NCBI GenBank assembly: GCA_051294375.1
Contig: JBJCIZ010000122.1
Coordinates: 1 to 22,619 of the forward strand
From: Paraspadella gotoi
Taxonomy: Eukaryota > Animalia > Chaetognatha
Length of the DNA: 22,619 nucleotides
Direction of reading: 5' to 3'
In this document: piece after piece, positions 7,466 through 22,619 of the stretch
Position numbering within the stretch: the stretch's first letter is position 1
Layout of the letters: every line of letters begins with the position of its first letter
Made by a program: the position numbers and the translations under genes
Notes under the pieces: generated by a model
Seen by the model: the letters and a program-made list of their open reading frames with translations, nothing else
The model's database searches: none
What the model was told of the DNA's origin: nothing

Positions 7466-7923
7466 ATTTTTTTAAAAAAAATGAAGAATAACTTATAATG
7501 ATATGCATTATCACATATAAATAAATCAGCTAATGTGACCTATTATATATGCAGCACTTTCGCCGAATAATATAATTGGCATGCATGCACATTATAAAAA
7601 AAATTTTGTGTTTTTATTTATTATTGCAACTTTGGACCGGTTGGCCCACTATTGGCAAATTATATCTAAAAATAGGAATTGATAAGAGAGATATAGTCAA
7701 ATTAAACATTACTTTTTTTTGTTATTCTGATAATTTGTACTATTATTAAATTTATAATATTATTTTTAGTGTATATATTTAATCATTTTTAAACTTTTTT
7801 TTTAAATAATAATTATTTGAGTTGTGATAACTATTTATAAATTAATTAATATGCAAATATTAAATTTGACCCTCGGTCTGGTTTCTTCCTAAAAAAAGAA
7901 CAATCTTTTTTTCTCTATCTCTC

Positions 7924-8890: not shown

Positions 8891-9172
8891 CGAAAGCGGC
8901 TCGATCTTTATGCTTTTAAGATTTTTTATCTTAGATTTACATTCGTTTCAAAAAATTAGGAGGGCACAAGTTGTCCTTTATCGTCTCGAGAGACACGTCA
9001 AACCTCTCGTCTACGGCAAGAAACCACCCTCAACGTCTCTTTAATCTTCAACAGAGGACGCCGCTCCCGAGAGATTTCTCCGAGCAACTTAGCCGACGCA
9101 CCAGGCTCATCTGCTTTCGATTTCCCGCCATCGTCACCCGAAATCGGAAATTACGCTAACGTCAACGGCGAA

Positions 9173-10075
9173 ATGGCGGCCCCCACCGGCGCCAACGAAA
9201 CGGAAGTGTTGCGCTCCGCTCTCGCAGCGGCGCTCAAAGCCCTCGAAAAAAAGAACAAGCCCGAACTGCCGACCTTCGAACCCAAAAACATCGACATTTG
9301 GATCCGGAGGGTCGAGGCGACGTTCATCGCGCTAACATCAAGGAGGCGAGCGAAAAGTTCACGCATCTTGAATCGAAAATTAGCGTCGACGCCAACTCTC
9401 GCATAAATGCTTTTCTCTATGGCGATCCTTCTGAAGCAAACTGGACGGAATTCACTGCTTACCTCCATATTCCATAAGGAATACGGAATGACCCCGCGCC
9501 AAAAAGCGGCGCTCCTCGACGGTTTCGGACGCGATGGCCTACGCCCATCTCAACATCTAGCTAGACTAGAAGAAAAGATAAAGCCCATCACCATTGACGA
9601 TATCAAAAAAGAGACGACAGTCAGAGGTTTGCCACTCGAAATAAGGCGCGCCCTTGAAGACATAGTTGATGAATGGACGGCGTCGCAATTTGCCGACGCT
9701 GCCGACAAATTCTTCGATGCAGAGGGACGCCCGACTCTCGCGGCACCAACTTCGACGATCAACGCCGCTATCTCTGACAATCGCGCCGAAGACACGGTGA
9801 GCGGATCGGACAACGAAAACATCGGCATCAACGTCGTTCAGGGACAACGCCGCGACAGAAGTCGCCCGCAGCCATCCAGTTGGCGCCCTGGCACATCGAG
9901 CGCCTCGTCGGCGAACACTCGCCTCCCTAACGGGCGCCTGAAGCTGGTCTGCTGCTGGCACTTGAAGTTCGGTGACGCCGCTTTCCGCTGCGAGCGCGGC
10001 TGTGCTCGTAAAGGCAAACGCCGCGACCGAAAAGAAACCCAGTCAGGAAATGACGCCGCGGGACAGCGCAGGTGA
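9173..10075 (+). pseudogene. gag: Ty3/Gypsy gag, frameshifted
   Basis: N-terminal LPTFEPKNIDIWIRRVEATF, LRPSQHL motif and C-terminal CCWHLKFGDAAFRCERGC knuckle, typical of animal Gypsy gags. Two frameshifts near 9328 and 9465. Confidence 0.8.
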
Positions 10076-10385
10076 ACGCTGTACCCCGCGCCAATAAGGA
10101 CGATTCACCTGACAATTATCTGCTGCATGTAAAGGATGCCAGCGATGGCCGCCAATTGTTGGTCAATGGTGGTGCCCTCATCTCCCTCGTCCCGCCCACT
10201 GCAGCACAAAGAGTAGCAGGACCTGTTGGACCTCAGCTTCAAGCAGCCAACGGAAGCCCAATAAACTCCTATGGCGTCGTACATCGACGAATAGTACTCG
10301 GCTTGAGAGTTTTTCTTTTCGACATGCTCGCGGCCGATGTAACTCAAAATATTTTGGGCGCCGATTTCTTAGCCGTGTTTTACCT
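10072..10385 (+). pseudogene. pol: Ty3/Gypsy pol 5' end (aspartic protease), truncated before RT
   Basis: LLVNGGALISLVP (catalytic D replaced by N), LQAANGSPINSYG and ADVTQNILGADFL. In the -1 frame relative to gag; sequence turns AT-rich abruptly after 10385. Confidence 0.85.
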
Positions 10386-10480
10386 AGGGTTCCGTTAACC
10401 GTTAATTTTTGAGGAACTTCGCTTTAAACCGTATAACTAACGTTTTTAACGGTTAACCGTTAAAATCGGTTAATTTTATA
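10386..10480 (+). mobile_element. Possible terminus of a non-autonomous hAT-like DNA transposon
   Basis: Starts TAGGG exactly where the protease is cut and is followed by clustered AACCG/CGGTT motifs. The other end and a TSD were not seen. Confidence 0.4.
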
Positions 10481-10520: not shown

Positions 10521-11222
10521 AAGACAAGTCTTGATACAGCAACGATTTTATTTTATTGTACAGACAAGTTTCGGCTTTCATTCAAGCCTTCATCAGTGCT
10601 TTGACAATTCACAATTTTCATGTTTTTCCAAATTAACTTTGGAAGAGAGAGAGAGAGAGAGAGAAGAGAATAGAGAGAGAAGAAATGGCCAACAAAGATA
10701 TGAGACAGGACAGTGGTGAAATGTGAGGACAGGTTTAAGTTAGTAGAGAGAGAGAGAGAGAGAGGAATGTGAGGGAAAAGAAATTAAATTTGTGAATGAG
10801 GGAGAGAGAGACAGAGAAGCAGAGGTTAACATTTGGTAAGAAGAGTTACATTAGAAAATGTACAATGATAAATTTAATAAATAAGTAGACAGACTTAAAC
10901 AAACTAAAATATTTAAATTAATTCAGATAAATTAATTAATAAAGGAGTGAAGTTTAGATGAAATTGAAATAAAGATGTTGAGGGATAGGTAAGTGAAAGA
11001 GTAGAGAAAAATATAAGAAAAAGAAAAGAAAAAGCTCAAAATGAGCTGCCCCCCCCCCGGGTCAACAATGGGGGATGCTGACGATGTGGTCGGGTCATTG
11101 GTTTGTCATAGGCTGAGAGGCTATTGTGGTGGAGTGCGACATGGACGGGTCCGGTAGAGACCCCAGGCGGAAAGAGGCCAAGTGCAACTCGAATATCTCT
11201 CAGCGCTGATAAACCTGCCGGC
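10521..11222 (-). mobile_element. Penelope-like/retrozyme element copy D, 5'-truncated, abutting the BEL LTR
   Basis: Same order of parts as copy A: coding remnant (11222 to about 11100), G-run, CT-rich region, motif cagtggtgaaatgtgaggacag, hammerhead and tail. Confidence 0.8.
10555..10608 (-). ncRNA. Minimal type I hammerhead ribozyme, intact core with bulged stem I
   Basis: Minus strand reads ATTGT-caaa-GCA-CTGATGA-A-GGCTT-gaatga-AAGCC-GAAAC-TT-GTC-TGT-ACAAT. Stem I is GCA:TGT plus ATTGT:ACAAT. Confidence 0.88.
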
Positions 11223-11735
11223 AGACTTGGCTCTCCCGGCGTCGCGAGGTAGGCGTGGCTCGTCGTGAGAGAGACGTAAACGTAAATCTGACGGATCTCG
11301 AACGTCGAAAATATCTCGAAGAGAAAAGACTCGAAAACGGAACCAAATAATAAGACGAAATATAAATGTAAATGGAATATATCGAGCAGTAAGTCAAGCA
11401 GAAAATCCGACGTAAATCAAGCAAAAAATCGTACAAAAATCCGGAGAAAATAGTCGACGTCCGTAGAAATATCCGTGAGAAAATAGTTTGTGTCCAAAGA
11501 AAATCGTAAGCAAATCGTGATCAAAGTGAACTAAACTCGGTCTGTCTGGTCTTGTCCAAATAAAGTATTAGAGAGAAAGGGCGGGAGAAACCGGTAAGAG
11601 AGAGAGAGAAAGAGAGAGAGTGCGAATGAGTCGTACGGTCAATAACAGTCCGGTCAACTGGTCAGTCCGACGAACTCGGTCTCTCGTCCTTCGTCTGTCA
11701 ATCTCTTGGTCGGTCTGTCAGGGCCTTTCTCTACA
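11223..11735 (-). repeat. 3' LTR (about 520 bp; terminal 7 nt missing)
   Basis: Starts TGTAGAGA at 11735 on minus. 11223-11256 matches 22587-22619 with one indel. The 5' LTR ends TCTCTACA, giving an 8-bp terminal inverted repeat. Confidence 0.92.
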
Positions 11736-11745
11736 CCCCCGCCTC
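11736..11745 (-). promoter_or_regulatory. Polypurine tract
   Basis: GAGGCGGGGG immediately before the TG of the 3' LTR. Confidence 0.85.
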
Positions 11746-12837
11746 AGCTAGGAAACTCCGCTGACCATCTATAAGGCCTCGCAGGACCGACGGTCACATG
11801 GCGAACTTGTCTGACCTATCAACCCCAGATCGTTTGACTAGAATAAGTAAAAGACAATGACTAGAATATTTTTCCTGAGTAAATGGCCCGTTAAGTCGTT
11901 CTTCTCAGTTTTTTTGAAGGCGGTTGATACTGTCAGGGATGCGTCGGCCACCATCGGATTTCCTTTTGGTGTCGGTTGACGTAGTTAGCTGTTCATATAG
12001 GAGGGAAAGGAAAAAACACAGCAGACACAATTTCTTAAGCATTTCTCTTCATTCGTTATTCTTTCACATTCGCTTTTCCCATTATTTCCAATTTCATTAT
12101 TCATGTTTTATTTTATGAAACATCACTCCCCTGTTAATCTTTCCGGCGTCCATTGACGCCGGTCCCGTCGCTGACTTTTGTTTGAGGTTCAAGTGGACGT
12201 GACGCTGTTGGAGATCTGAGACTTAAAAGAAAGTTGTGGGGAGGGGATTCGAATTTCGGGATTTGTCTGATGGAGTTTAAACTCCGTCCCAATTGTTTAT
12301 ATAAATACGTGATAATTATTATGTATATATTTATATGAGTGTTCTCTATCGCTTTTTTATTAAAATCAAATCGTGAATTGTTATTGTTAGATTCATTTTT
12401 TTTTTTAAATAAATTAATAAATTAAAATATGTTTTCCTTTAATCATTTTTAAAATCGTCAAAGGGTTTATTAATTCTTAAATCATGATTCTTTTTCTTCC
12501 AGATAAATTGGTACTCCCACAATACGTATATCTTTTTTCAAAATCTCCAAACAATAATACTGCTATATGCAAATTTCATTTAAAGTCATACTATGAATTC
12601 AGAATGGAGGGCCCGTTGGGCCACGTCCAGAGTGGAGAGTCGCATCCAGATCCTCCGGCGGTTTTGAAGTACATGTAAAAAGGGGGCAGAAAAGAAAACA
12701 AATATCTTAATTAAATTAATGAAGTGTTTATTTAATCAATATTCTAATTAAAATTTAATTTCAGATTCGGAATTCGAATCCATCATCATAATAAAGGTAG
12801 AACAGGCTTTTTCTCATTTGAGATCACTGAAGCGTAC

Positions 12838-13537
12838 CTTAGGGATTCTCGGTGGATGAAATCTTGCACGTGCATCGCGTATCATGTCCCAACAAGCCTG
12901 CCCTCTTGTTGGTCAACCACCTTTAAGGATCAATGACCCTTCGGCCGAGAAGGGATGCCTCCTCTTCTGGGCCTAGGTTTATATCAAAAGGTGTTTCTCC
13001 CGGCTGAAGGTCAAGGATGGCGCTCTCACGATCGCCTTCATCCATCTCTTCTTCATCGTCTCCTTCATCTCCATCTTCTTCTTCGACGTGTCCTCGTCTT
13101 CCGAAGGGTCGTCAATTCGATCATTCCAATTTCTTGATTCTTTATTTTTTCCTTTGCCTTTTCCTTTTCCGGATTCATTCTGATCGCTTGTGCCTTCGCC
13201 GGGATCAGTCACCGTTTCTACCACACGTTCTACATTTTCACGAATGTCTCGGCTCCGGAATTCAACTTCTGTGCTCGCACTGCCAAATTTTTGTAGTCGG
13301 TTATTTTTTTTTACTTCTTCTCGAATCCTGTTGAGGGTTTCATTGCCTAAACGTTCAAAAACTGAAGTTCTTTTTCAATTTTTCCGGTAATGGTTTCCCG
13401 TTGTTTTAATCCGGTTTTGTTTTTTCTCATGTCTTCTGCTTCAAGGATGCCATCAACTTCGCCGGGGTGGAGATTGTAGTTGGGTCCCACGTTGATAATT
13501 TGACGGGCGGAGAAAGCCTTTCATGATCTTGAGATGT
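12838..13537 (-). pseudogene. Probable disrupted continuation of the accessory ORF
   Basis: Coding-like, charged segments in alternating frames (e.g. LHPGEVDGILEAEDMRKK, IRENVERVVETVTDPGEG, ILDLQPGETPFDINLGPEEE) broken by stops and indels. Ends at a donor-like AAG|GTACGC at 12837. Confidence 0.5.
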
Positions 13538-14575
13538 TTAAAAATCGGGATCCGCCGCGCCCTCTGCCGCGTCCTCGAACGTATACGGCGATGCGGGGGG
13601 CAGTTCCTTTTCTGATCCGGAGCCATTTCCAAATTCACACGTGTGGCCGCATCCAACTCCAGAACTGGCCGATTGGCCACGTTCAGAGCAGAGGGCCCGT
13701 TGACTATGTCCAGGACGGAGGGCCTGGCGGCCACGTCCTCTCCCTGGAAGGTTCACGGAGTTGCGGGTTTTCGCTGAAGGTCCACTGACTCCAGGGTCGG
13801 GTCCTATGGAAATTTCCCTCGCTATCTCCGGTTGTTTCTGCGCGAGCATAAGTCTCCTTAGTCGTCGTTTTTCCGTTTTCGTTTTGTAGTCCATCAAGCT
13901 ATTCGAGGTTGTTGGAGGGGCCCGGTTTGACGATCGAGTAGAAGACGGTGTTGGAGATGGAGCCGGCCTTGAACTTGAAGACGGGATTGGAGTTGGAGCC
14001 TGGATTGGTCTTCCTCCAGATCTTTGTCCTGAAGTTGTCGCCGTAACCGCTCTCCTGTTTTCGACCACTCTTGCTGCAATCCGCGCCTTTTCCACGATAT
14101 TTGGGAGTTCCTCTGAGGCCTTCTTTATGTTTGGTCGCTCATTTCTCATGAAGTCGTTTACAACAATATCCGGTTCGGAAGAAGGGGGCTCAGAATGTCC
14201 TTTGAAGCGAAACATGTCTCGTCTGAGTTGAGCAAATTTATAGCATCCTCCATGTTTCTGCCACCAACGATGGAGGAGCTCGCCTGGCTTCGCGGGAGCA
14301 TCCAAAACGACGATGTCAAACATCTGCTCGCACCAAGACATCAACAAAAAATCACATCCTTCTACAGTTTCATCTGGGAGGAGACCATAGACAGCCTCTT
14401 CGTTTGCGAATGAAGCCTTCACAAGCCAAACACGCTTTCCTTCATTGAGAGTCGCCGTCAGGAAAAATTCGATGGCGACAGTGCGATTTCCGCCGATCAT
14501 TCCAGCGCCGCCTCGAATATCAACGTCGCGTCTGATGCCGACAAAGGAATCGTAATTGTTGACATTGGCACTCAT
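13538..14575 (-). CDS. Accessory ORF of the BEL/Pao element (345 aa, unknown function, not env-like)
   Basis: ATG at 14575 lies about 45 nt after a strong acceptor ccccatctttcAG (14622-14621). Globular-looking N-terminal ~125 aa, then a Ser/Pro-rich linker and a basic patch KTKTEKRRLRR. No signal peptide or TM segment visible. Confidence 0.7.
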   Translation of the reverse strand: MSANVNNYDSFVGIRRDVDIRGGAGMIGGNRTVAIEFFLTATLNEGKRVWLVKASFANEEAVYGLLPDETVEGCDFLLMSWCEQMFDIVVLDAPAKPGELLHRWWQKHGGCYKFAQLRRDMFRFKGHSEPPSSEPDIVVNDFMRNERPNIKKASEELPNIVEKARIAARVVENRRAVTATTSGQRSGGRPIQAPTPIPSSSSRPAPSPTPSSTRSSNRAPPTTSNSLMDYKTKTEKRRLRRLMLAQKQPEIAREISIGPDPGVSGPSAKTRNSVNLPGRGRGRQALRPGHSQRALCSERGQSASSGVGCGHTCEFGNGSGSEKELPPASPYTFEDAAEGAADPDF

Positions 14576-14663
14576 TCTCAGTTTTTTATGTGTTTATCAC
14601 AGATTTCGTAAGAATATCACCTGAAAGATGGGGAAATCGATTTAAAGTTAGTCTTAAAGTTGA

Positions 14664-14694
<31 letters not shown>

Positions 14695-15779
14695 TTTAAA
14701 AGGGTCTCAAAAATTCTAACTGTGCAAGAATCAAGTCTTTTGATCGAAGTTAAGGATCCACAGTTCACACGCATCGTCGCCACAATGGAACCCAGTTCCG
14801 ACGTTCGTTCTCTAAGAAAAACAAAATAATAGTTAGAATTTACAAAATTTACAATGTCAGGTATATCATCATTCGTAAATCGTCATTCATAATCTTCCTA
14901 TAAGAGGATGTTTTATGTTTAAAATAATTTTAATAATAGTCTGAAAATAAACTGAATAATAAAAGGAATAAAATAAAAAAATCTAGTCATTAACTAAATA
15001 ATTTTAAATTTAAAAAAAAAACATAAATTCCATTAATTAGAATGACAAGCAGTGTCATATGCGCATCTGCTAATGTGACTCATAGGCGGTACCTACTAAA
15101 TATTCGGCAGTTACACCAAATTAATTTAAGCACATTATCATTCAAAGGGAAAAAAAAAATTTTATTTACTATTGTAGCTTTGGACCGGTCGGCCCACTAT
15201 TGCCAGATAATATCTAAAATAGTAACCGAGAAGAGATATAATTAAATAAAACAACTTATTTTGTTATTATAATGATTTGTACTATTATTAAATTAATAAA
15301 AAAATATAAATCTATTTACAAAAAATATTTATTTATTTTTCTTTAAGTTTATAATTGTTTGAATCGCGTTAAATCTTTATAAATTAGTTGAATATGCAAA
15401 TATACAATTTGACCTCGGTCTGGTTTCTCCCTAAACAAAAGATATTTCTGAAATTTAATTCAAGATTAAAATTTGTAAAATGAGGAAATAAAATTTATTT
15501 GATAAGTAAAAAGAAATGAAAATATTTAGAAGTCGAAAATATCATAGTCGTTAACTGAGTATTTTCGACTAAATATTTGTTTATAGAGACTAATTTTTGA
15601 CCATTATTATTGAAATAGTTTAACCCTATCGCGAGACGGAGTTTTCATTTCATACAATCAATCAATCTCATTCTTTTTCATTAATATGCGAATGGTGAGG
15701 TCTTCAACCTCATTTTGAACTTGGTGAACAAAAGACTTCAGTCTTATTTCAATTAAAAAAATAGAAAGTTAATTGAAGC

Positions 15780-18700
15780 TTAATCACACTCTAACAAAAC
15801 AATTTTATTTCTATCACGTTCTAAATATTTGTTTGCGGTTTTGATAACCACTCTTCTTACGTGACCATTCTCATTGTCCACTCTTTCCACTCTTCCAAGT
15901 TTCCATTCATCCCTCGGTAAATTTTCGTCAACTATCAAAACTAGCTGACCTATTTTTACATTCGGTTCTGTTTTCTGCCACTTTTCTCGGGCTTGGAGGG
16001 TCAATACATACTCATCTCTCCATCTCACCCAGAATTCATCAATAAGATCACGTGATTTAGTCCATTCAGCTCTAAATTCATCCCCTGACCAAGATTCTGG
16101 TGGAATAATCGCTGGTCGTGAACCAGTGAAAACTCCTGGATAAAGAATATCGGCTGGGCTGATTGCGTTCAAGTCTGTTACGTCGTCACTTTCTTGTGTA
16201 AGGGGGCGTTTGTTTATAATGCCCTCTACCGCGACGAGTACAGTTGTAAACATTTCCAAAGTTAAGTTTTCTTTTTTCAAAACAGAATCGAGATGGCATT
16301 TTGCTAGTTTCACCATTCGTTCCCAGACGCCGCCCCAATGGGGGGCGTTGGGGGGACCAAAAACCCATTCAAATCCATATTCTAATAATCTATTGCTCAT
16401 TTGTTCATTTTGCCAACTTTCAATCGCCTTTTGGATTTCGAGATTCGCGCGTCGAAAATTCGTTCCATTATCGGAGTAGAATTTTCGTGATCCTGGGCGA
16501 CGGGAGTTGAATCGAATTAATGCATTTATAAAGGATGAGCTTGATATATCATCTAAAACTTCAAAATGCACACCTCTCATTTTTAAACAAGTAAAGAGAG
16601 CAACCCATCGTTTATGCACTGCTCGGCCTGTAATTTTTACTTTATAAGGGCCAAACAAATCCACTCCGGTTACTTCGAAAGGCGAGCCGCGATGGAGCCG
16701 GTCCTCAATAAGTGGCGCCATTTTTTGTATTGCCGGGGGTTTGAAGTTCTTCTGACAACCAATACATTTCCCAATAACTTTTTTCGTGGTTCTACGGAAA
16801 CATTGGATGTGAAATCGTTTTCGTAATTCACTAATTACGTGATTTGTGCTGGCGTGACATTCGGAAATATGAATATGACGAATCAGATCGTGAACTATAG
16901 AATCATCCTTAGGCAGGATGATAGGATGTTTCATGTCATAATCATAACTGGCATTACACAATCTACCACCAACTCTCATCAAACCACTCTTGTCCAAAAA
17001 CGGGTTCAGTTGTCTAAGAATTGACTTTAAGTTTAACTCTTTTCTCCCGCTTGGTTCATTAATGTCTTTTTCTCTAAGTTCTTTTATTTCTTTTTCGAAA
17101 TAAGCATTTTGCAGTGCCTTAATCATTATTCGTTCAGCATTATTAATGTCGTCCAAAGTGAGTCTCATCTCTTTTACATTTAAAATTTCTTTTTTTGCTT
17201 TTCTTTTTATTGCCTTTTCAACTAAGGCAATTCGTCTGAGTTTTTGATAATACCGCTCAGTGTACTTACCAAGCTTAATTGCCCAGTGGTTGATAGGGCT
17301 ATCATCTTCACGTTCAAACATTTTCGCATCTACAGAATTGACATTTAAATCATATGGAAGTGGATCCATTGAGATTTTCTGTTCTGGCCATTCCTCTTCA
17401 GGAAGGCATAAAAAATCAGGACCTTTGTGAAAACGTTGCCATTTTTCATCGTCAGCTGATAGGCCACGGCTGCAGTCATCGGCTGGGTTCATTTTTGTCG
17501 GAACATATCGCCAATCTTCGATATTACTTAGTTCGTGAATTCGAGATAAGCGGTTTTTGAAAAATACCACAAATCGTTTTGATTTGTCTCGGATCTGTTT
17601 CAAAACAGTCTCACTATCAGTCCACATTACAATTCTTAAAAATTTATCATTCGTGCATTCTTCAACAATCAATTGACGGATTTCACAAGCCAATCTTGCC
17701 GCCGTCAATTCAAGTTTTGGAATGGAGTTGTGGTGACCCGTTTTTATCGAATCTAAGGGTGTGACCTTAGACTTTGATAATAGAAACGCAACGTGAGGAT
17801 CGCCCCCGCCTTTTGGGCACGCCCTCCGGTAAACGGAGACTCCATATCCCTCCATTGAAGCATCACAAAAGATGTGAAGTTCTGCAGGTTCATTGGTAGT
17901 TGCTGGAGTGGCAACCCATCGTGGGATTTTAACTTCCTCAAGCTTTGGAAGCTGTTCTTTCCAAGCATCAACTTCTTTTTGGAGATCATTCGGCAAGGGA
18001 GCATCCCAAGCCATCTCCAAGGCTGTTGCCTTTTGAAAAATCATTCTTCCCTTTATTGTAAAAGGGGAAACAAGACCAAGTGGATCATACAAGCTTGCAG
18101 TCAAGGAAAGGAGTTGTCTCCTTGTTTTGCAAGGTTTCGCCAATTTCTCTTTGTTGATTTTAAAGTGAAAATGGTCATCACCAAAATCATAACCAACACC
18201 CAGGATTTTGTCAGTTACCACAAGAGGTTGACATAACCGATCTGGTTCTAAAACAAGAGTTGGAGGACCATCTCCAATCTCACCAAGCACACTGGGATCT
18301 GAGCACTTCCACTTGCCCAGTTCAAAGCCACCTCTGGCCATTGCTTCAGTCAGACCTTCCTTCAACTTCCTGGCTGTCTCAGCATCAGGAATGGAGCTGA
18401 TGAAGTCATCAACATAGAAAGCTCGAAGGATGGCTTCAATCACATCGTCAGGGAAGACTCCAACAAGGGACTCAGCATGGTAGTGGAGTGCATAGTTTGC
18501 AACAACTGGAGATGAAGTGGCACCAAAGATGTGGACCTTCAACTCAAACAAAGCAAGCTTTGTGCATTCTTTGTCTTCCCACCACCAATATCGGAAGACA
18601 TGGACATCATTTTCGTCAACAAAAATCTGGTGAAAGAACATTTTAATGTCGGCATGAATAGCAATCTCATGACGTCGGAAACGAAGCAAGATGCCAATCA

Positions 18701-19781
18701 AGCTGTTCATTAAATCAGGGCCCGTTAAAAGCTGGTCATTGAGACATTTTCCTTTCACCTTTGCTGCAGCATCATGACAAACTCTCACTTTGTTCTTGTC
18801 CTTACGGACAACAACAAGCAACGGTAAGTTCCACTGAGGAATGCCATCCTCAGTCTCAACATGTTCTACTTTCTGGACATTCCCAGCATCAACCTCTTTC
18901 TTAATCTCTTCCCAAACCTTAGCTCGGGCCTCAGGATCTTTGTTGAGCTTTTTCATTAGGGAATTTAGTCGATTTAAAGCCATTCCATTTGAATCGCGTT
19001 GATTCAAGATCTCGGCTGCTTTCTTTCTCCCTTCCTTCCAGGGTAACCCTACTACATAATGGCCTATATCAGGGTCAAACCTAATGGATGATCTCAACTG
19101 ATGCATAGCATATTCATCATCTAGAGAAGGTTGGAGTTTCATAGTGGGTTTTGTTTCAAAATCCTGATTAAAGAGTCGTTTTATATCCTCTCTAATTGTC
19201 TGCTCATCTTCTTCCACAAATTCTGCAGTCATACGAGCACAATCAATCGTTTCTTCATTTACTCCTTGGCGTGGTCCAATCAAAGTCCAGCCAAAGTCAG
19301 TTTTCATGCCAATAGGAAGATTTTCATCACCCCGTCTAATCTCACCATTAGTCCAAGTGTAGGCTAATTGAGCGGGCAAGAGAACTTCAACTTCCTTATG
19401 GTCCAATTCATAAAATTTGATGCCTTCAAGATGGGGCATCCCTTGAATCTCTTCATTTGTTGGTGGAAAATCATCTTCGGTGGAAAGTAGATTCCCTACC
19501 ACACATTTTTTCATAGTAATGGAAAAATCGCTTTCTAAGTTTTCGAGGTTTACATCACAAAGATCCTTCTCACAAACAGAAACTGAGTCATAAGATCGTA
19601 TTTTCATAGTTGCTTTCGTTGTTTCAATTCCCATGTCCTTAGCAGCGCTGGTCTTAATCACACATCTGTTGCACCCTGTATCAATCATCGCCCATGTGGG
19701 CTTTTTTCTACCATTCCATTCAATCACTACAGGAACAACAGGCCGATATGATGACTCACCGGGGGCAGAAGCCACAGCTAG
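15780..19781 (-). CDS. pol: BEL/Pao Pol polyprotein (PR-RT-RNase H-IN), intact
   Basis: PR AMIDTGC. RT RVCHDAA, LLTGPDL, ADIKMFFHQI, FGATSSP, FYVDDF. RH LHIFCDAS, IPKLELTAA, WTDS, NPADDCSRG. IN HHCC, GVDLFGP, SDNGTNF, WGGVWERMV. The frame is open directly after the gag stop; the ORF track start at 19775 is a GTG. Confidence 0.98.
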   Translation of the reverse strand, partial: LAVASAPGESSYRPVVPVVIEWNGRKKPTWAMIDTGCNRCVIKTSAAKDMGIETTKATMKIRSYDSVSVCEKDLCDVNLENLESDFSITMKKCVVGNLLSTEDDFPPTNEEIQGMPHLEGIKFYELDHKEVEVLLPAQLAYTWTNGEIRRGDENLPIGMKTDFGWTLIGPRQGVNEETIDCARMTAEFVEEDEQTIREDIKRLFNQDFETKPTMKLQPSLDDEYAMHQLRSSIRFDPDIGHYVVGLPWKEGRKKAAEILNQRDSNGMALNRLNSLMKKLNKDPEARAKVWEEIKKEVDAGNVQKVEHVETEDGIPQWNLPLLVVVRKDKNKVRVCHDAAAKVKGKCLNDQLLTGPDLMNSLIGILLRFRRHEIAIHADIKMFFHQIFVDENDVHVFRYWWWEDKECTKLALFELKVHIFGATSSPVVANYALHYHAESLVGVFPDDVIEAILRAFYVDDFISSIPDAETARKLKEGLTEAMARGGFELGKWKCSDPSVLGEIGDGPPTLVLEPDRLCQPLVVTDKILGVGYDFGDDHFHFKINKEKLAKPCKTRRQLLSLTASLYDPLGLVSPFTIKGRMIFQKATALEMAWDAPLPNDLQKEVDAWKEQLPKLEEVKIPRWVATPATTNEPAELHIFCDASMEGYGVSVYRRACPKGGGDPHVAFLLSKSKVTPLDSIKTGHHNSIPKLELTAARLACEIRQLIVEECTNDKFLRIVMWTDSETVLKQIRDKSKRFVVFFKNRLSRIHELSNIEDWRYVPTKMNPADDCSRGLSADDEKWQRFHKGPDFLCLPEEEWPEQKISMDPLPYDLNVNSVDAKMFEREDDSPINHWAIKLGKYTERYYQKLRRIALVEKAIKRKAKKEILNVKEMRLTLDDINNAERIMIKALQNAYFEKEIKELREKDINEPSGRKELNLKSILRQLNPFLDKSGLMRVGGRLCNASYDYDMKHPIILPKDDSIVHDLIRHIHISECHASTNHVISELRKRFHIQCFRRTTKKVIGKCIGCQKNFKPPAIQKMAPLIEDRLHRGSPFEVTGVDLFGPYKVKITGRAVHKRWVALFTCLKMRGVHFEVLDDISSSSFINALIRFNSRRPGSRKFYSDNGTNFRRANLEIQKAIESWQNEQMSNRLLEYGFEWVFGPPNAPHWGGVWERMVKLAKCHLDSVLKKENLTLEMFTTVLVAVEGIINKRPLTQESDDVTDLNAISPADILYPGVFTGSRPAIIPPESWSGDEFRAEWTKSRDLIDEFWVRWRDEYVLTLQAREKWQKTEPNVKIGQLVLIVDENLPRDEWKLGRVERVDNENGHVRRVVIKTANKYLERDRNKIVLLECD

Positions 19782-22256
19782 TCAGCTAGATAAGGGAGGA
19801 GTTGCGGTGGCAGAATCTTGTTGGCGAGGGCCTGGAGAAGATGGCGTTCTCGCAGCAGCTCCCGTGAGTGGAGTCATATTGAGGCGTTGATTTTGAGGCG
19901 GCCGGGTCGGGGTTCGTGCCGGGGAGTTGGCGACCACCTTAGCATACGTCGTTGGGTCCTGTCTTGGAGAAAAAGCTGTTATACCATGCACTACTGTATT
20001 ATGTGGACCAGTACACACGAGACAGCATTCTTTGTCCCAAGTACATTGCTTAGCAAGATGATTTTTGCCCAAACAACGAAAACATAATCCATTCTTTTTC
20101 ATGACATTGGCTTTACCTTCTTTTGACAGTTTCAGAAAAGATTTGCAAGCCTCAAGCATATGCCATTCATTGCAGTATTCACAAGCATGTTCCAACACAT
20201 CACTAATATGATTCAATGCAATATTGGTTTCATCAACTTTCACCTTGCGAGTATGTCGAGATCCAGATGGTGGAGATCCTTGGGTGACCTTTAGGGGCCT
20301 AACCTTCGTCACTGATCCCCCGCCGTTTACATTCTGGCGCGACTCATCGGCGTTGATGGCGGCGACGTCGACCGTAACCTTTTTCTTTTGCCTCGCATAG
20401 GCGCCTTTCTCGAAGAGAATCCTTTTCTTAAGGTAAGCAATAAAGTCATCAAATTTCAACTTTTTTCCGTGGTCGTATTGGTAGTCGGCGTCTTTTTTCG
20501 CGAAATCTGTCTTTAAAAAATCACATCTTGTTTCCAAAATCTCATTGATCACCGTATCTTTATCAAGGTCTGATCCTTTGCCATTCTTGTCAGCCATAGC
20601 TTTAACATTCTCAAGTTCCGTGGTCAGCTTGTCAAGTTCGGTCTTGTTGCCTGGTAAGATCTTTGGTTTGGATAGAATATCCTTCAGCAAGTCATGAACA
20701 GTAGCATTCTTCTTTCCAAATTCCTTCCAAAGAGTTTCTAAAGCTTCTTTGATAGCCTCAGTGTGACCAGATTCTTTCATAAGGAATTTCGACAATTTCA
20801 TTTGAGCTAAACCAGTAAACCAGTGGTTAAGTTCTTGTAACTTGACTTCGTCCGTAGCTTCGGCCTGACACATGGTTGTCTCATATGCACGCATGTGTAA
20901 CTCAAAAACAGGTCCAGCATTCTTATCTTCACCTGTAAATGGTTTCTTTGGCCTTCCTTGTTCAACATTTCGTAGCATGGAATCCTTTTTTGATTGCTTT
21001 ATCCAAGCAGCCATGATTGAATCGTCAAAACCTGATGTTGCTCGGGCTGGTGATGAAGTTGGAGCAGGAGCAAGTGTTGGAGTAGGAGCTGGAGAAGGAG
21101 CGGGTTTTGTAGTTGGTTTTGAGGTTGGAGGAGCCGGATCGAATGAAATACTGCGAGTAGAGGTCCCTCCAAAACTGACTCGGCGTTTCTTCTCTCTGTC
21201 TAGTTCCTTAGTAAGGGTTTCAATGGTTTTTTCAAGGTCGTGAATTCTGCTTTCCTGCTTCTTCAGTTCCACTCCATGATTGATGCAACAGTCTTCTAAT
21301 TGGGTCATGGTTTCAATTTGTCCAGGTCGAAATTCATTGAAGGCGTTTTCCATGCATTCCATTCGTCCATGAAGAGATTGGAAGGCTCTTCTCATTTCCA
21401 TTAATTCATTTCTCAGTTGGCCATTCTCTACAGACAAAGATTGCCGTTCCTTTTTGACAGTGCTCGTCCTTGCATTGGCACCAAAGAATGAGCGGGCCTC
21501 ATTGAAAGATTGAGTCTTCTTTTCAAGCTTCTCATTGATGAGCTTCATCTCTCTTTCTTTGACTTCATTCATGTGAGCCATTTCCTTTTCAATTTCTTGT
21601 TTTCTTTTTTCCATTTCACGTCCATACTGCTCTTCCTTCCTTTTCTTCTCAGCTTTGATGAGAGTCAACTCACGTTCTTCCTTGTTCAGGTTGCGAAATG
21701 TTTGATCATCCCAAGACAGGTCCAATTCTTGGAGGTCGTAGTCAGGTCCGGAATCCTCATCATCGTTAGCAGCAACATTCGTTCCATTCACAACAGCATC
21801 ATATGCCCTATCAATAAATCCCTCAAGATCATTGGAATCACCATTCACCTGCTTCACTGCCGTTTCCGGGTTTTCCGAAGTCGAATCATTATCGTCTTCT
21901 TCACTTTGCTCTTCATCCAATTCCTTTTGTGGTTCGTTGGCCTCATTCACGGGTGCGCGGGCGTTACCATCTCGACGTCGACGGATGGTAACGTGCCCCA
22001 TTTGAGTGCTTTCGTCAAGCATCCGGCGTTGTATCGAGCCTTGGGGGTAGGATATTTTTACCATCTTAATCTGAGAGATTTTCTCCATGACGAGTGGCTC
22101 CAATCCCTTGGCCATGGCGACTGCCTCCGGGGTGCCGAGTTCGTGATAACGCTCAATCAGATTGGTAAGAGCTTTGACGGCATCATGTATCCCCTCAGGA
22201 GTAAAATCGTCCATGTTGATCTTTCCGCGCTCCACGATAAGAGATTCAATCGACAT
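19782..22256 (-). CDS. gag: BEL/Pao Gag (824 aa), intact
   Basis: Coiled-coil N-terminal half, Pro-rich linker, capsid-like region, and triple knuckle CEYCNEWHMLEAC / CFRCLGKNHLAKQC / CLVCTGPHNTVVH. Confidence 0.95.
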   Translation of the reverse strand: MSIESLIVERGKINMDDFTPEGIHDAVKALTNLIERYHELGTPEAVAMAKGLEPLVMEKISQIKMVKISYPQGSIQRRMLDESTQMGHVTIRRRRDGNARAPVNEANEPQKELDEEQSEEDDNDSTSENPETAVKQVNGDSNDLEGFIDRAYDAVVNGTNVAANDDEDSGPDYDLQELDLSWDDQTFRNLNKEERELTLIKAEKKRKEEQYGREMEKRKQEIEKEMAHMNEVKEREMKLINEKLEKKTQSFNEARSFFGANARTSTVKKERQSLSVENGQLRNELMEMRRAFQSLHGRMECMENAFNEFRPGQIETMTQLEDCCINHGVELKKQESRIHDLEKTIETLTKELDREKKRRVSFGGTSTRSISFDPAPPTSKPTTKPAPSPAPTPTLAPAPTSSPARATSGFDDSIMAAWIKQSKKDSMLRNVEQGRPKKPFTGEDKNAGPVFELHMRAYETTMCQAEATDEVKLQELNHWFTGLAQMKLSKFLMKESGHTEAIKEALETLWKEFGKKNATVHDLLKDILSKPKILPGNKTELDKLTTELENVKAMADKNGKGSDLDKDTVINEILETRCDFLKTDFAKKDADYQYDHGKKLKFDDFIAYLKKRILFEKGAYARQKKKVTVDVAAINADESRQNVNGGGSVTKVRPLKVTQGSPPSGSRHTRKVKVDETNIALNHISDVLEHACEYCNEWHMLEACKSFLKLSKEGKANVMKKNGLCFRCLGKNHLAKQCTWDKECCLVCTGPHNTVVHGITAFSPRQDPTTYAKVVANSPARTPTRPPQNQRLNMTPLTGAAARTPSSPGPRQQDSATATPPLSS

Positions 22257-22384
22257 CGTATGAAATCAAGAAAAATAAAATTGGATGAGAGAAAGCAAAG
22301 GTAAGTTGGAATCAATCAATTCAAATAAAGTTGAGTTTAAATTTTAAATAAAAAGTTGCTTAAAGATTTTGGCAAATTCGTTGT

Positions 22385-22385
<1 letters not shown>

Positions 22386-22438
<53 letters not shown>
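22386..22438. repeat. (CAAT)n microsatellite, about 13 units, in the element 5' leader
   Basis: Read directly. Confidence 0.95.
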
Positions 22439-22439
<1 letters not shown>

Positions 22440-22568
22440 CTTTGATCCGATTTACCTTGGATTGATGTCGGTTCCGATCCAAAGGTTGTCAGTAACTAGT
22501 TTGGAAGACGGCAAAAAATCCAAATAAAATCAATCAAATGAACCAAACTTACCTGTTGATGCAATGGT

Positions 22569-22579
22569 TATTTTCTCAC
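22569..22579 (-). promoter_or_regulatory. Non-tRNA primer binding site candidate (GTGAGAAAATA)
   Basis: Directly follows the LTR-terminal CA, has no TGG, and is complementary to the LTR 11-mer at 11475-11485. Confidence 0.6.
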
Positions 22580-22619
22580 TGTAGAGAGACTTGGCTCTCC
22601 CGCGTCGCGAGGTAGGCGT
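22580..22619 (-). repeat. 5' LTR, U5 end (partial)
   Basis: Plus strand TGTAGAGAGACTTGGCTCTCC..., matching the 3' LTR end at 11223. Confidence 0.92.

Follow-up and report, generated by a model that had tools for sequence, protein, structure and literature searches.

How an LTR (long terminal repeat) retrotransposon obtains its enzymes when a stop codon stands between gag and pol is the question raised by a 22,619-nt stretch of the chaetognath Paraspadella gotoi (NCBI GenBank assembly GCA_051294375.1, contig JBJCIZ010000122.1, positions 1 to 22,619 of the forward strand; hereafter the window). The minus strand of the window carries a retrotransposon of the BEL/Pao group, whose gag and pol genes are separated by a single in-frame TGA followed by CTAG. 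Setting of the Gag:Pol ratio is poorly known in BEL/Pao elements, since most of them have one fused frame. Judged from the sequence, programmed readthrough of the gag UGA is the best reading of this locus, and we regard it as likely. The features on which the argument turns are the following.

19785..22256, minus strand: gag, 824 aa, comprising a coiled-coil N-terminal part, a capsid-like region, three Cys-His knuckles and a low-complexity tail.
19782..19784, minus strand: in-frame TGA at the gag/pol boundary, identical in bridging contigs of sequencing runs X4, X5 and X7 and found again in a sister family.
19775..19781, minus strand: CTAG context, whose letters through +7 match the sister family (loose ends of contigs, X5 and X7).
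15780..19781, minus strand (19781-15783 without the stop): pol, 1333 aa, identified by Pfam.

The junction reads, on the minus strand, ...TCT AGC TGA CTA GCT GTG GCT... An earlier reading of the window made from the letters alone (the sequence-only reading) had described gag and pol as sharing one frame that is intact except for this TGA, and had placed the stop between the knuckles and tail of Gag and the protease. Both descriptions hold: the 2159 codons of the combined frame contain this one TGA and the final TAA without any other stop, and the TGA lies 68 residues past the third Gag knuckle and 34 residues ahead of the protease Asp. From base composition, CTAG is expected behind a given stop in about 1 of 273 cases, and CTA-G occurs in frame five times in 2156 codons. 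The first ATG of pol is codon 32, two residues upstream of the catalytic Asp. A -1 frameshift at the junction was rejected, as no slippery heptamer is present within 20100-19700 and the other frames are closed. Reassignment of UGA, or its use for selenocysteine, was rejected on codon usage, with all 36 Trp codons being TGG and all 40 Cys codons being TGY, and on the Rfam search of 11000-22619, which returned nothing relevant and no match resembling a selenocysteine insertion sequence (SECIS), the sole match up to an E value of 1 being a weak small nucleolar RNA.

The stretch is contained in nine sequencing runs from three studies, none of them recorded as RNA, and five of these runs were compared (X4, X5, X6, X7 and X8). 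Contigs bridging the stop show no difference from the window in X5 (19560-20120) and in X7 (19575-20120), and a single difference in X4 (at 19851). The contig of X6 bridges the stop with three differences, whose places are not listed, and that of X8, possibly an RNA run, agrees across the stop but extends over just 22 letters 3' of it. The stop is not an assembly error.

Deeper contigs in these runs, with 5 to 11 times the depth of the others (a ratio that is no measure of copy number), represent a sister family. They align with the window only at 19711-19762 (48 of 52 letters identical) and at 19907-19973 (56 of 67), and in the loose end beyond 19762 the motif TGA-CTAG is found at exactly the offset it has in the window (X5 and X7, one contig each). 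Around the stop 10 of 30 letters differ between sister family and window, while the 10 letters starting at the TGA are identical; third codon positions are changed in seven of seven cases outside these letters and in none of three inside (Fisher p 0.008; p 0.028 when the comparison is restricted to two four-fold sites). The protease-side loose end of the sister family differs from the window at 8 of 30 letters. A sister-family contig of X4 spans the junction with 147 letters, compared with 144 in the window, so that the gag-pol frame is kept. The sequence-only reading had held that a sense codon at this place in other copies would speak against a programmed stop; what the diverged sister family carries at the same place is TGA-CTAG, by which a private mutation is ruled out. 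On this comparison of sequences, the gag-UGA-CUAG-pol junction is real and inherited.

The wider distribution of the junction was approached through the starts of related Pol proteins. A first search for relatives of Pol found 186 proteins, of which 120 were listed, with lengths of 733-2333 covered. When 58 of the top 59 relatives were placed in a tree with the window, 13 proteins grouped with it in one clade (FastTree support 1.00), each of them Pol-only. A second search supplied the best 150 of 19416 matches among representatives at 50% identity, and 146 new proteins pooled with P0002-P0040 gave a set of 185, eight of which were dropped for containing too little of the reverse transcriptase (RT). 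The resulting RT tree places the window within a clade of 50 (support 1.0), in which the median RT identity is 37% (range 24-86%). None of the 49 clade relatives starts upstream of the position equivalent to the stop, compared with 110 of the 128 proteins outside the clade (103 of them by more than 30 aa), and the earliest clade proteins start at 0, 5, 7, 7 and 7 relative to that position. Among proteins starting near the boundary, 12 of 33 outside the clade reach more than 5 residues upstream compared with 0 of 49 inside, a pattern that fits a stop at the start of the pol frame better than an overlap there. For all 41 listed cluster members longer than 1200 aa, drawn from 10 clusters, the start lies in the protease, and their contigs are up to 19 kb long. 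No fused Gag-Pol clade member was present among the 120 listed matches of a profile search extending up to 2566 aa. Taken with the stop in the sister family, the lack of fused clade relatives makes occasional readthrough likely, and these protein starts suggest that the UGA-CUAG junction is probably common to a deep BEL/Pao lineage.

Scans of viral contigs yielded no relative. Three metagenome loci were found, all having several stops and two falling short of the junction. In locus L001 the TGA that separates knuckle from protease is accompanied by further stops, so the locus was given no weight. The one locus that the genome-contig scans gave, L004, lies outside the clade and shows a frame change inside the protease start; the contig, L004:1-6415, is that of a BEL/Pao retrotransposon and was placed in an archaeal genome bin, probably as eukaryotic contamination.

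Under programmed readthrough, most ribosomes would stop at the UGA and release Gag, whereas a small share of them, perhaps a few percent, would insert a residue and continue to give Gag-Pol. The UGA would presumably be decoded by a near-cognate tRNA, and the outcome would be Gag in excess over the enzymes. The other members of the clade would likewise carry a UGA and not another kind of break. The description of UGA-CUAG as a strong readthrough context, made by the sequence-only reading, agrees with published reporter assays, in which this context is efficient and UGA-CUA alone gives 1.5% readthrough (PMC4132726). The conserved block at +20 to +71 may help as well, through an RNA structure or by providing the donor from which a gag-only RNA is spliced. 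The features behind the stop are listed here, with a second donor-like site that lies in the leader.

19711..19762, minus strand: block conserved in the sister family, +20 to +71 from the stop, 48 of 52 nt identical (contigs of X4, X5 and X7).
19666..19741, minus strand: predicted 14-bp stem, formed by 19741-19728 with 19680-19666, not statistically exceptional.
19754..19762, minus strand: candidate splice donor, a perfect match to the consensus (CCG/GTGAGT), 22 nt past the stop.
22547..22555, minus strand: candidate splice donor in the leader, matching the consensus (AG/GTAAGT).

The block at +20 to +71 is better conserved than its flanks (binomial p 0.001-0.014, uncorrected for the aligner's choice of the best piece), and it opens with the 19754..19762 donor. 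Sites of the form G/GTRAGT number three in the element, these two donors included. Splicing at 19754..19762 would yield a gag-only RNA in which the stop is retained. A weak hairpin directly downstream, which the sequence-only reading had put forward as a possible helper of readthrough, found no support: it has an energy of -5.7 kcal/mol and a z-score of -0.25, it is equalled by 76 of 200 shuffled sequences, and it is replaced by other pairings in folds of 142 to 200 nt. The pair probabilities of the 14-bp stem are mostly 0.8-1.0, and by energy the 150-nt segment around it comes 12th among 127 in the element and 7th among the 28 of similar GC content.

Other ways of accounting for the junction were weighed. 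Pol might be made from a spliced RNA, in which a donor in gag is joined to the AG of TGACTAG, the stop is removed in frame, and the conserved letters are those of an acceptor. This AG, at 19779-19778, is in phase 1, as are four of the seven donor-like sites in gag (21841, 21673, 20932 and 20116), a coincidence of phase that counts against readthrough, and the element has clear splice consensus elsewhere, in the leader donor and the 3' acceptors. We nevertheless consider splicing to Pol improbable: an AG situated 8 nt farther upstream is stronger (11 of 12 pyrimidines, compared with 7 of 12) and its use would keep the stop, an acceptor needs only YAG whereas the sister family has preserved the TGA in full together with the letters on the exon side, and the resulting Gag-Pol would lose the knuckles or the capsid. 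Separate translation of Pol, by re-initiation or internal entry or from an internal promoter, has been discussed for the Candida albicans element Tca2, and a promoter at the junction was found there (PMC2194720). Several clade proteins have a Met two residues ahead of the protease Asp, where such a Pol could begin, but this Met is not general in the clade (P0002, P0011, P0012, P0014 and P0033 have Leu or another residue), a start there drops the conserved R-P-x-V-P-V strand of the protease, neither the R-U5 region of the LTR nor the leader contains an ATG, and the in-frame position of pol and the conservation of CTAG are left unexplained. The chance that Pol is made in this way appears small.

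An equally small chance is given to the stop being kept in the families of this organism while most of the clade uses another break, such as a frameshift in a short overlap, or other stops. Against it stand the protein starts of the relatives: none in the clade lies ahead of the boundary, unlike those of 12 of 33 broken or split outsiders. That the TGA is a private nonsense mutation or an assembly error in a dead copy, or that the host code reads UGA as sense, is very improbable. Some damage is evident in the clipped 3' LTR and in a high-copy insertion in the 3' region, but the stop is present in the bridging contigs of three runs and in the diverged sister family, and a recoded host is opposed by the Trp and Cys codon usage and by the Rfam result given above.

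Programmed readthrough itself has to be set against several observations that weigh on the other side. The window's family may be a single locus, in which case the bridging contigs test the assembly and not other copies, and run X5 comes from a study that is possibly the source of the window. Junction DNA is available from two families of one organism. For the 49 clade relatives the data are products of gene callers, which makes their stop codon and its context presumptive; 29 of them exceed 1200 aa, and the remaining 20 may be fragments at contig ends. Since the tips of the tree are related, p-values overstate the independence of the counts. Fold z-scores behind the stop are modest, at -0.25 to -0.65 (-0.3 to -0.65 in the region of the 14-bp stem), with one window at +1.11, and the strongest stem begins 40 nt past the stop, compared with 7-12 nt in PMC3159437. 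In addition, the sequence flanking the UGA of Tca2 failed to direct readthrough in a yeast reporter (PMC2194720).

The remaining parts of the element were delimited as follows.

22580..22619, minus strand: final 40 nt of the 5' LTR, ending in TCTCTACA; the remainder lies beyond the window edge.
22569..22579, minus strand: candidate self-priming primer-binding site directly behind the 5' LTR, a perfect 11-nt complement of LTR positions 11485-11475.
13538..14572, minus strand: predicted third ORF (open reading frame) in the 3' region, 344 aa from its Met, downstream of acceptor-like sites.
11736..11747, minus strand: polypurine-tract-like run preceding the 3' LTR.
11223..11735, minus strand: 3' LTR, 513 nt, without its final 7 nt, carrying the primer-site complement at 11485-11475.

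The LTR has a length of about 520 nt with TG...CA termini (TGTAGAGA / TCTCTACA), and a polypurine tract is present. The end of the 5' LTR, TCTCTACA, is the inverted repeat of the start of the 3' LTR, TGTAGAGA, and 33 nt of the 5' LTR equal the end of the 3' LTR, one indel apart. A target-site duplication is unreadable, since the 3' LTR is short of its final 7 nt and runs directly into a further repeat of high depth (11222 and below). Pfam identified in Pol the domains Asp_protease_2, RVT_1, Peptidase_A17, Integrase_H2C2 and DUF5641, in the order protease, reverse transcriptase, RNase H and integrase (PR-RT-RH-IN), and PF05380 is found in all 120 listed Pol homologues of the 186 found. Gag alone gave no Pfam match, and a comparison of its C-terminal half with solved structures gave no useful one. 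Its residues 410-780, compared with DUF1759-bearing BEL proteins, gave two matches (best E 5.5e-12). The three knuckles start at residues 692, 725 and 745, the third being CX2CX3HX4H (residues 745-757). By its domains, knuckles and LTRs, all read from the sequence, the element is a BEL/Pao LTR retrotransposon.

No tRNA primer site was found behind the 5' LTR, as judged from the letters of the leader: it starts with GTG and its first TGG is 34 nt in. The 11-nt match to the LTR recurs in 6 of 5000 shuffled LTRs and in 2 of 6788 internal 11-mers, one of these being the primer site itself. The LTR segment 11485-11475 lies in what we take to be an initiator-like motif (YYANWYY). Speaking against self-priming, in four runs most of the contig depth over the LTR shows a different letter at position 11483, with no listing of its partner 22571. 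The pairing of 22569..22579 with 11485-11475 has a candidate self-priming geometry like that of Tf1 and Tj1, for both of which self-priming has been described (PMC4600332).

A (GATT)n microsatellite at 22385-22439 takes up about 55 nt of the leader. The third ORF has no Pfam match. The same 4-kb 3' region includes a further open stretch at 13374-12979 on the minus strand, and acceptor-like sites near 14620 and 14810. Contigs are deeper over the third-ORF region than over gag, and this region may therefore be shared by related elements. The stretch of about 14810-15780 is AT-rich, has very high contig depth and has partial copies near 7600-7850; it probably represents the insertion of a small high-copy element behind pol. 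Outside the element, the plus strand carries broken gag- and protease-like frames at 8960-10398, which by eye appear to belong to a second element of Ty3/gypsy type and have no Pfam match, and at 591-905 an exon of a host gene for a ZIP zinc transporter (PF02535, E 2e-23).

In the published ICTV profile of the Belpaoviridae, gag and pol are continuous or overlapping and an 18-nt tRNA primer site (tRNA-Arg/Gly) follows the 5' LTR, and BEL/Pao elements are described as metazoan (PMC8742986). The element described here resembles that profile in its LTRs, Gag knuckles, PR-RT-RH-IN order, polypurine tract, Peptidase_A17 and DUF5641, and differs from it in the in-frame stop that splits gag from pol and in having no tRNA site behind the LTR (PMC8742986). 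The split frame is a departure within BEL/Pao and not an exclusion from it. The silkworm BEL element Kamikaze was reportedly listed with a gag-pol stop by Gao et al. in 2003. No account of gag-pol readthrough in BEL/Pao was found in the literature searched, from whose coverage most subscription journals and Repbase were absent. The available parts of PMC3118150, PMC554778, PMC8556966, PMC12440569 and PMC13524379 make no mention of a gag-pol stop in this group, and those of PMC5009743 and PMC11889832 add nothing further on it. Readthrough in BEL/Pao would be a device known from other retroelements and apparently unusual for this group.

The view of the sequence-only reading that gag-pol readthrough is best known from gammaretroviruses needs to be broadened. 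It is right for murine leukaemia virus (MuLV), but a gag-UGA-pol arrangement also occurs in Tj1 and the Tosmo elements (PMC10085805) and in Tca2 (PMC2194720). Tca2, a Ty1/copia element, and MuLV have gag and pol in one frame with one stop, as here (UGA in Tca2, UAG in MuLV); both show a purine-rich spacer of 8 nt together with an actual or potential pseudoknot (PMC2194720), of which nothing similar was found here. The vertebrate readthrough genes with UGA-CUAG share the same stop and the same 4-nt context (PMC4132726). A long-range stem predicted downstream recalls the alphavirus-type combination of UGA-C with a 3' stem, whereas the stems in PMC3159437 start 7-12 nt past the stop, with covariation to support them, and the predicted core stem here starts at +40.

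The closest parallel lies in the fission yeast elements Tj1, Tcry1 and Tosmo1-3, in which gag and pol are separated by an in-frame TGA-CT(A/G) that is conserved from one family to the next, and in which pol has no AUG; transposition of Tj1 requires the gag-pol stop, and Tj1 is also self-primed (PMC10085805 and PMC4600332). They differ in being Ty3/gypsy chromoviruses, of another superfamily and another kingdom, and in the codon 5' of the stop, which is GAA there and a Ser codon here, while the element of P. gotoi has BEL-type Gag knuckles, Peptidase_A17 and DUF5641. If readthrough is borne by the whole lineage, a fixed leaky stop would show that readthrough can set the Gag:Pol ratio in BEL/Pao, and dozens of natural, diverged readthrough cassettes, probably from invertebrate hosts, would become available for a comparative search for 3' stimulators; annotation tools are likely to score such intact elements as broken. 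It is conceivable, though we advance it as a tentative and rather doubtful proposal, that clade-wide UGA-CUAG readthrough, tuned by a conserved downstream element which at the same time acts as donor for the splicing of a gag-only RNA, has taken the place of the fused Gag-Pol frame and is combined with self-priming, and that the pair of devices known from Tj1 was reached independently in an animal retrotransposon of an undescribed deep lineage.

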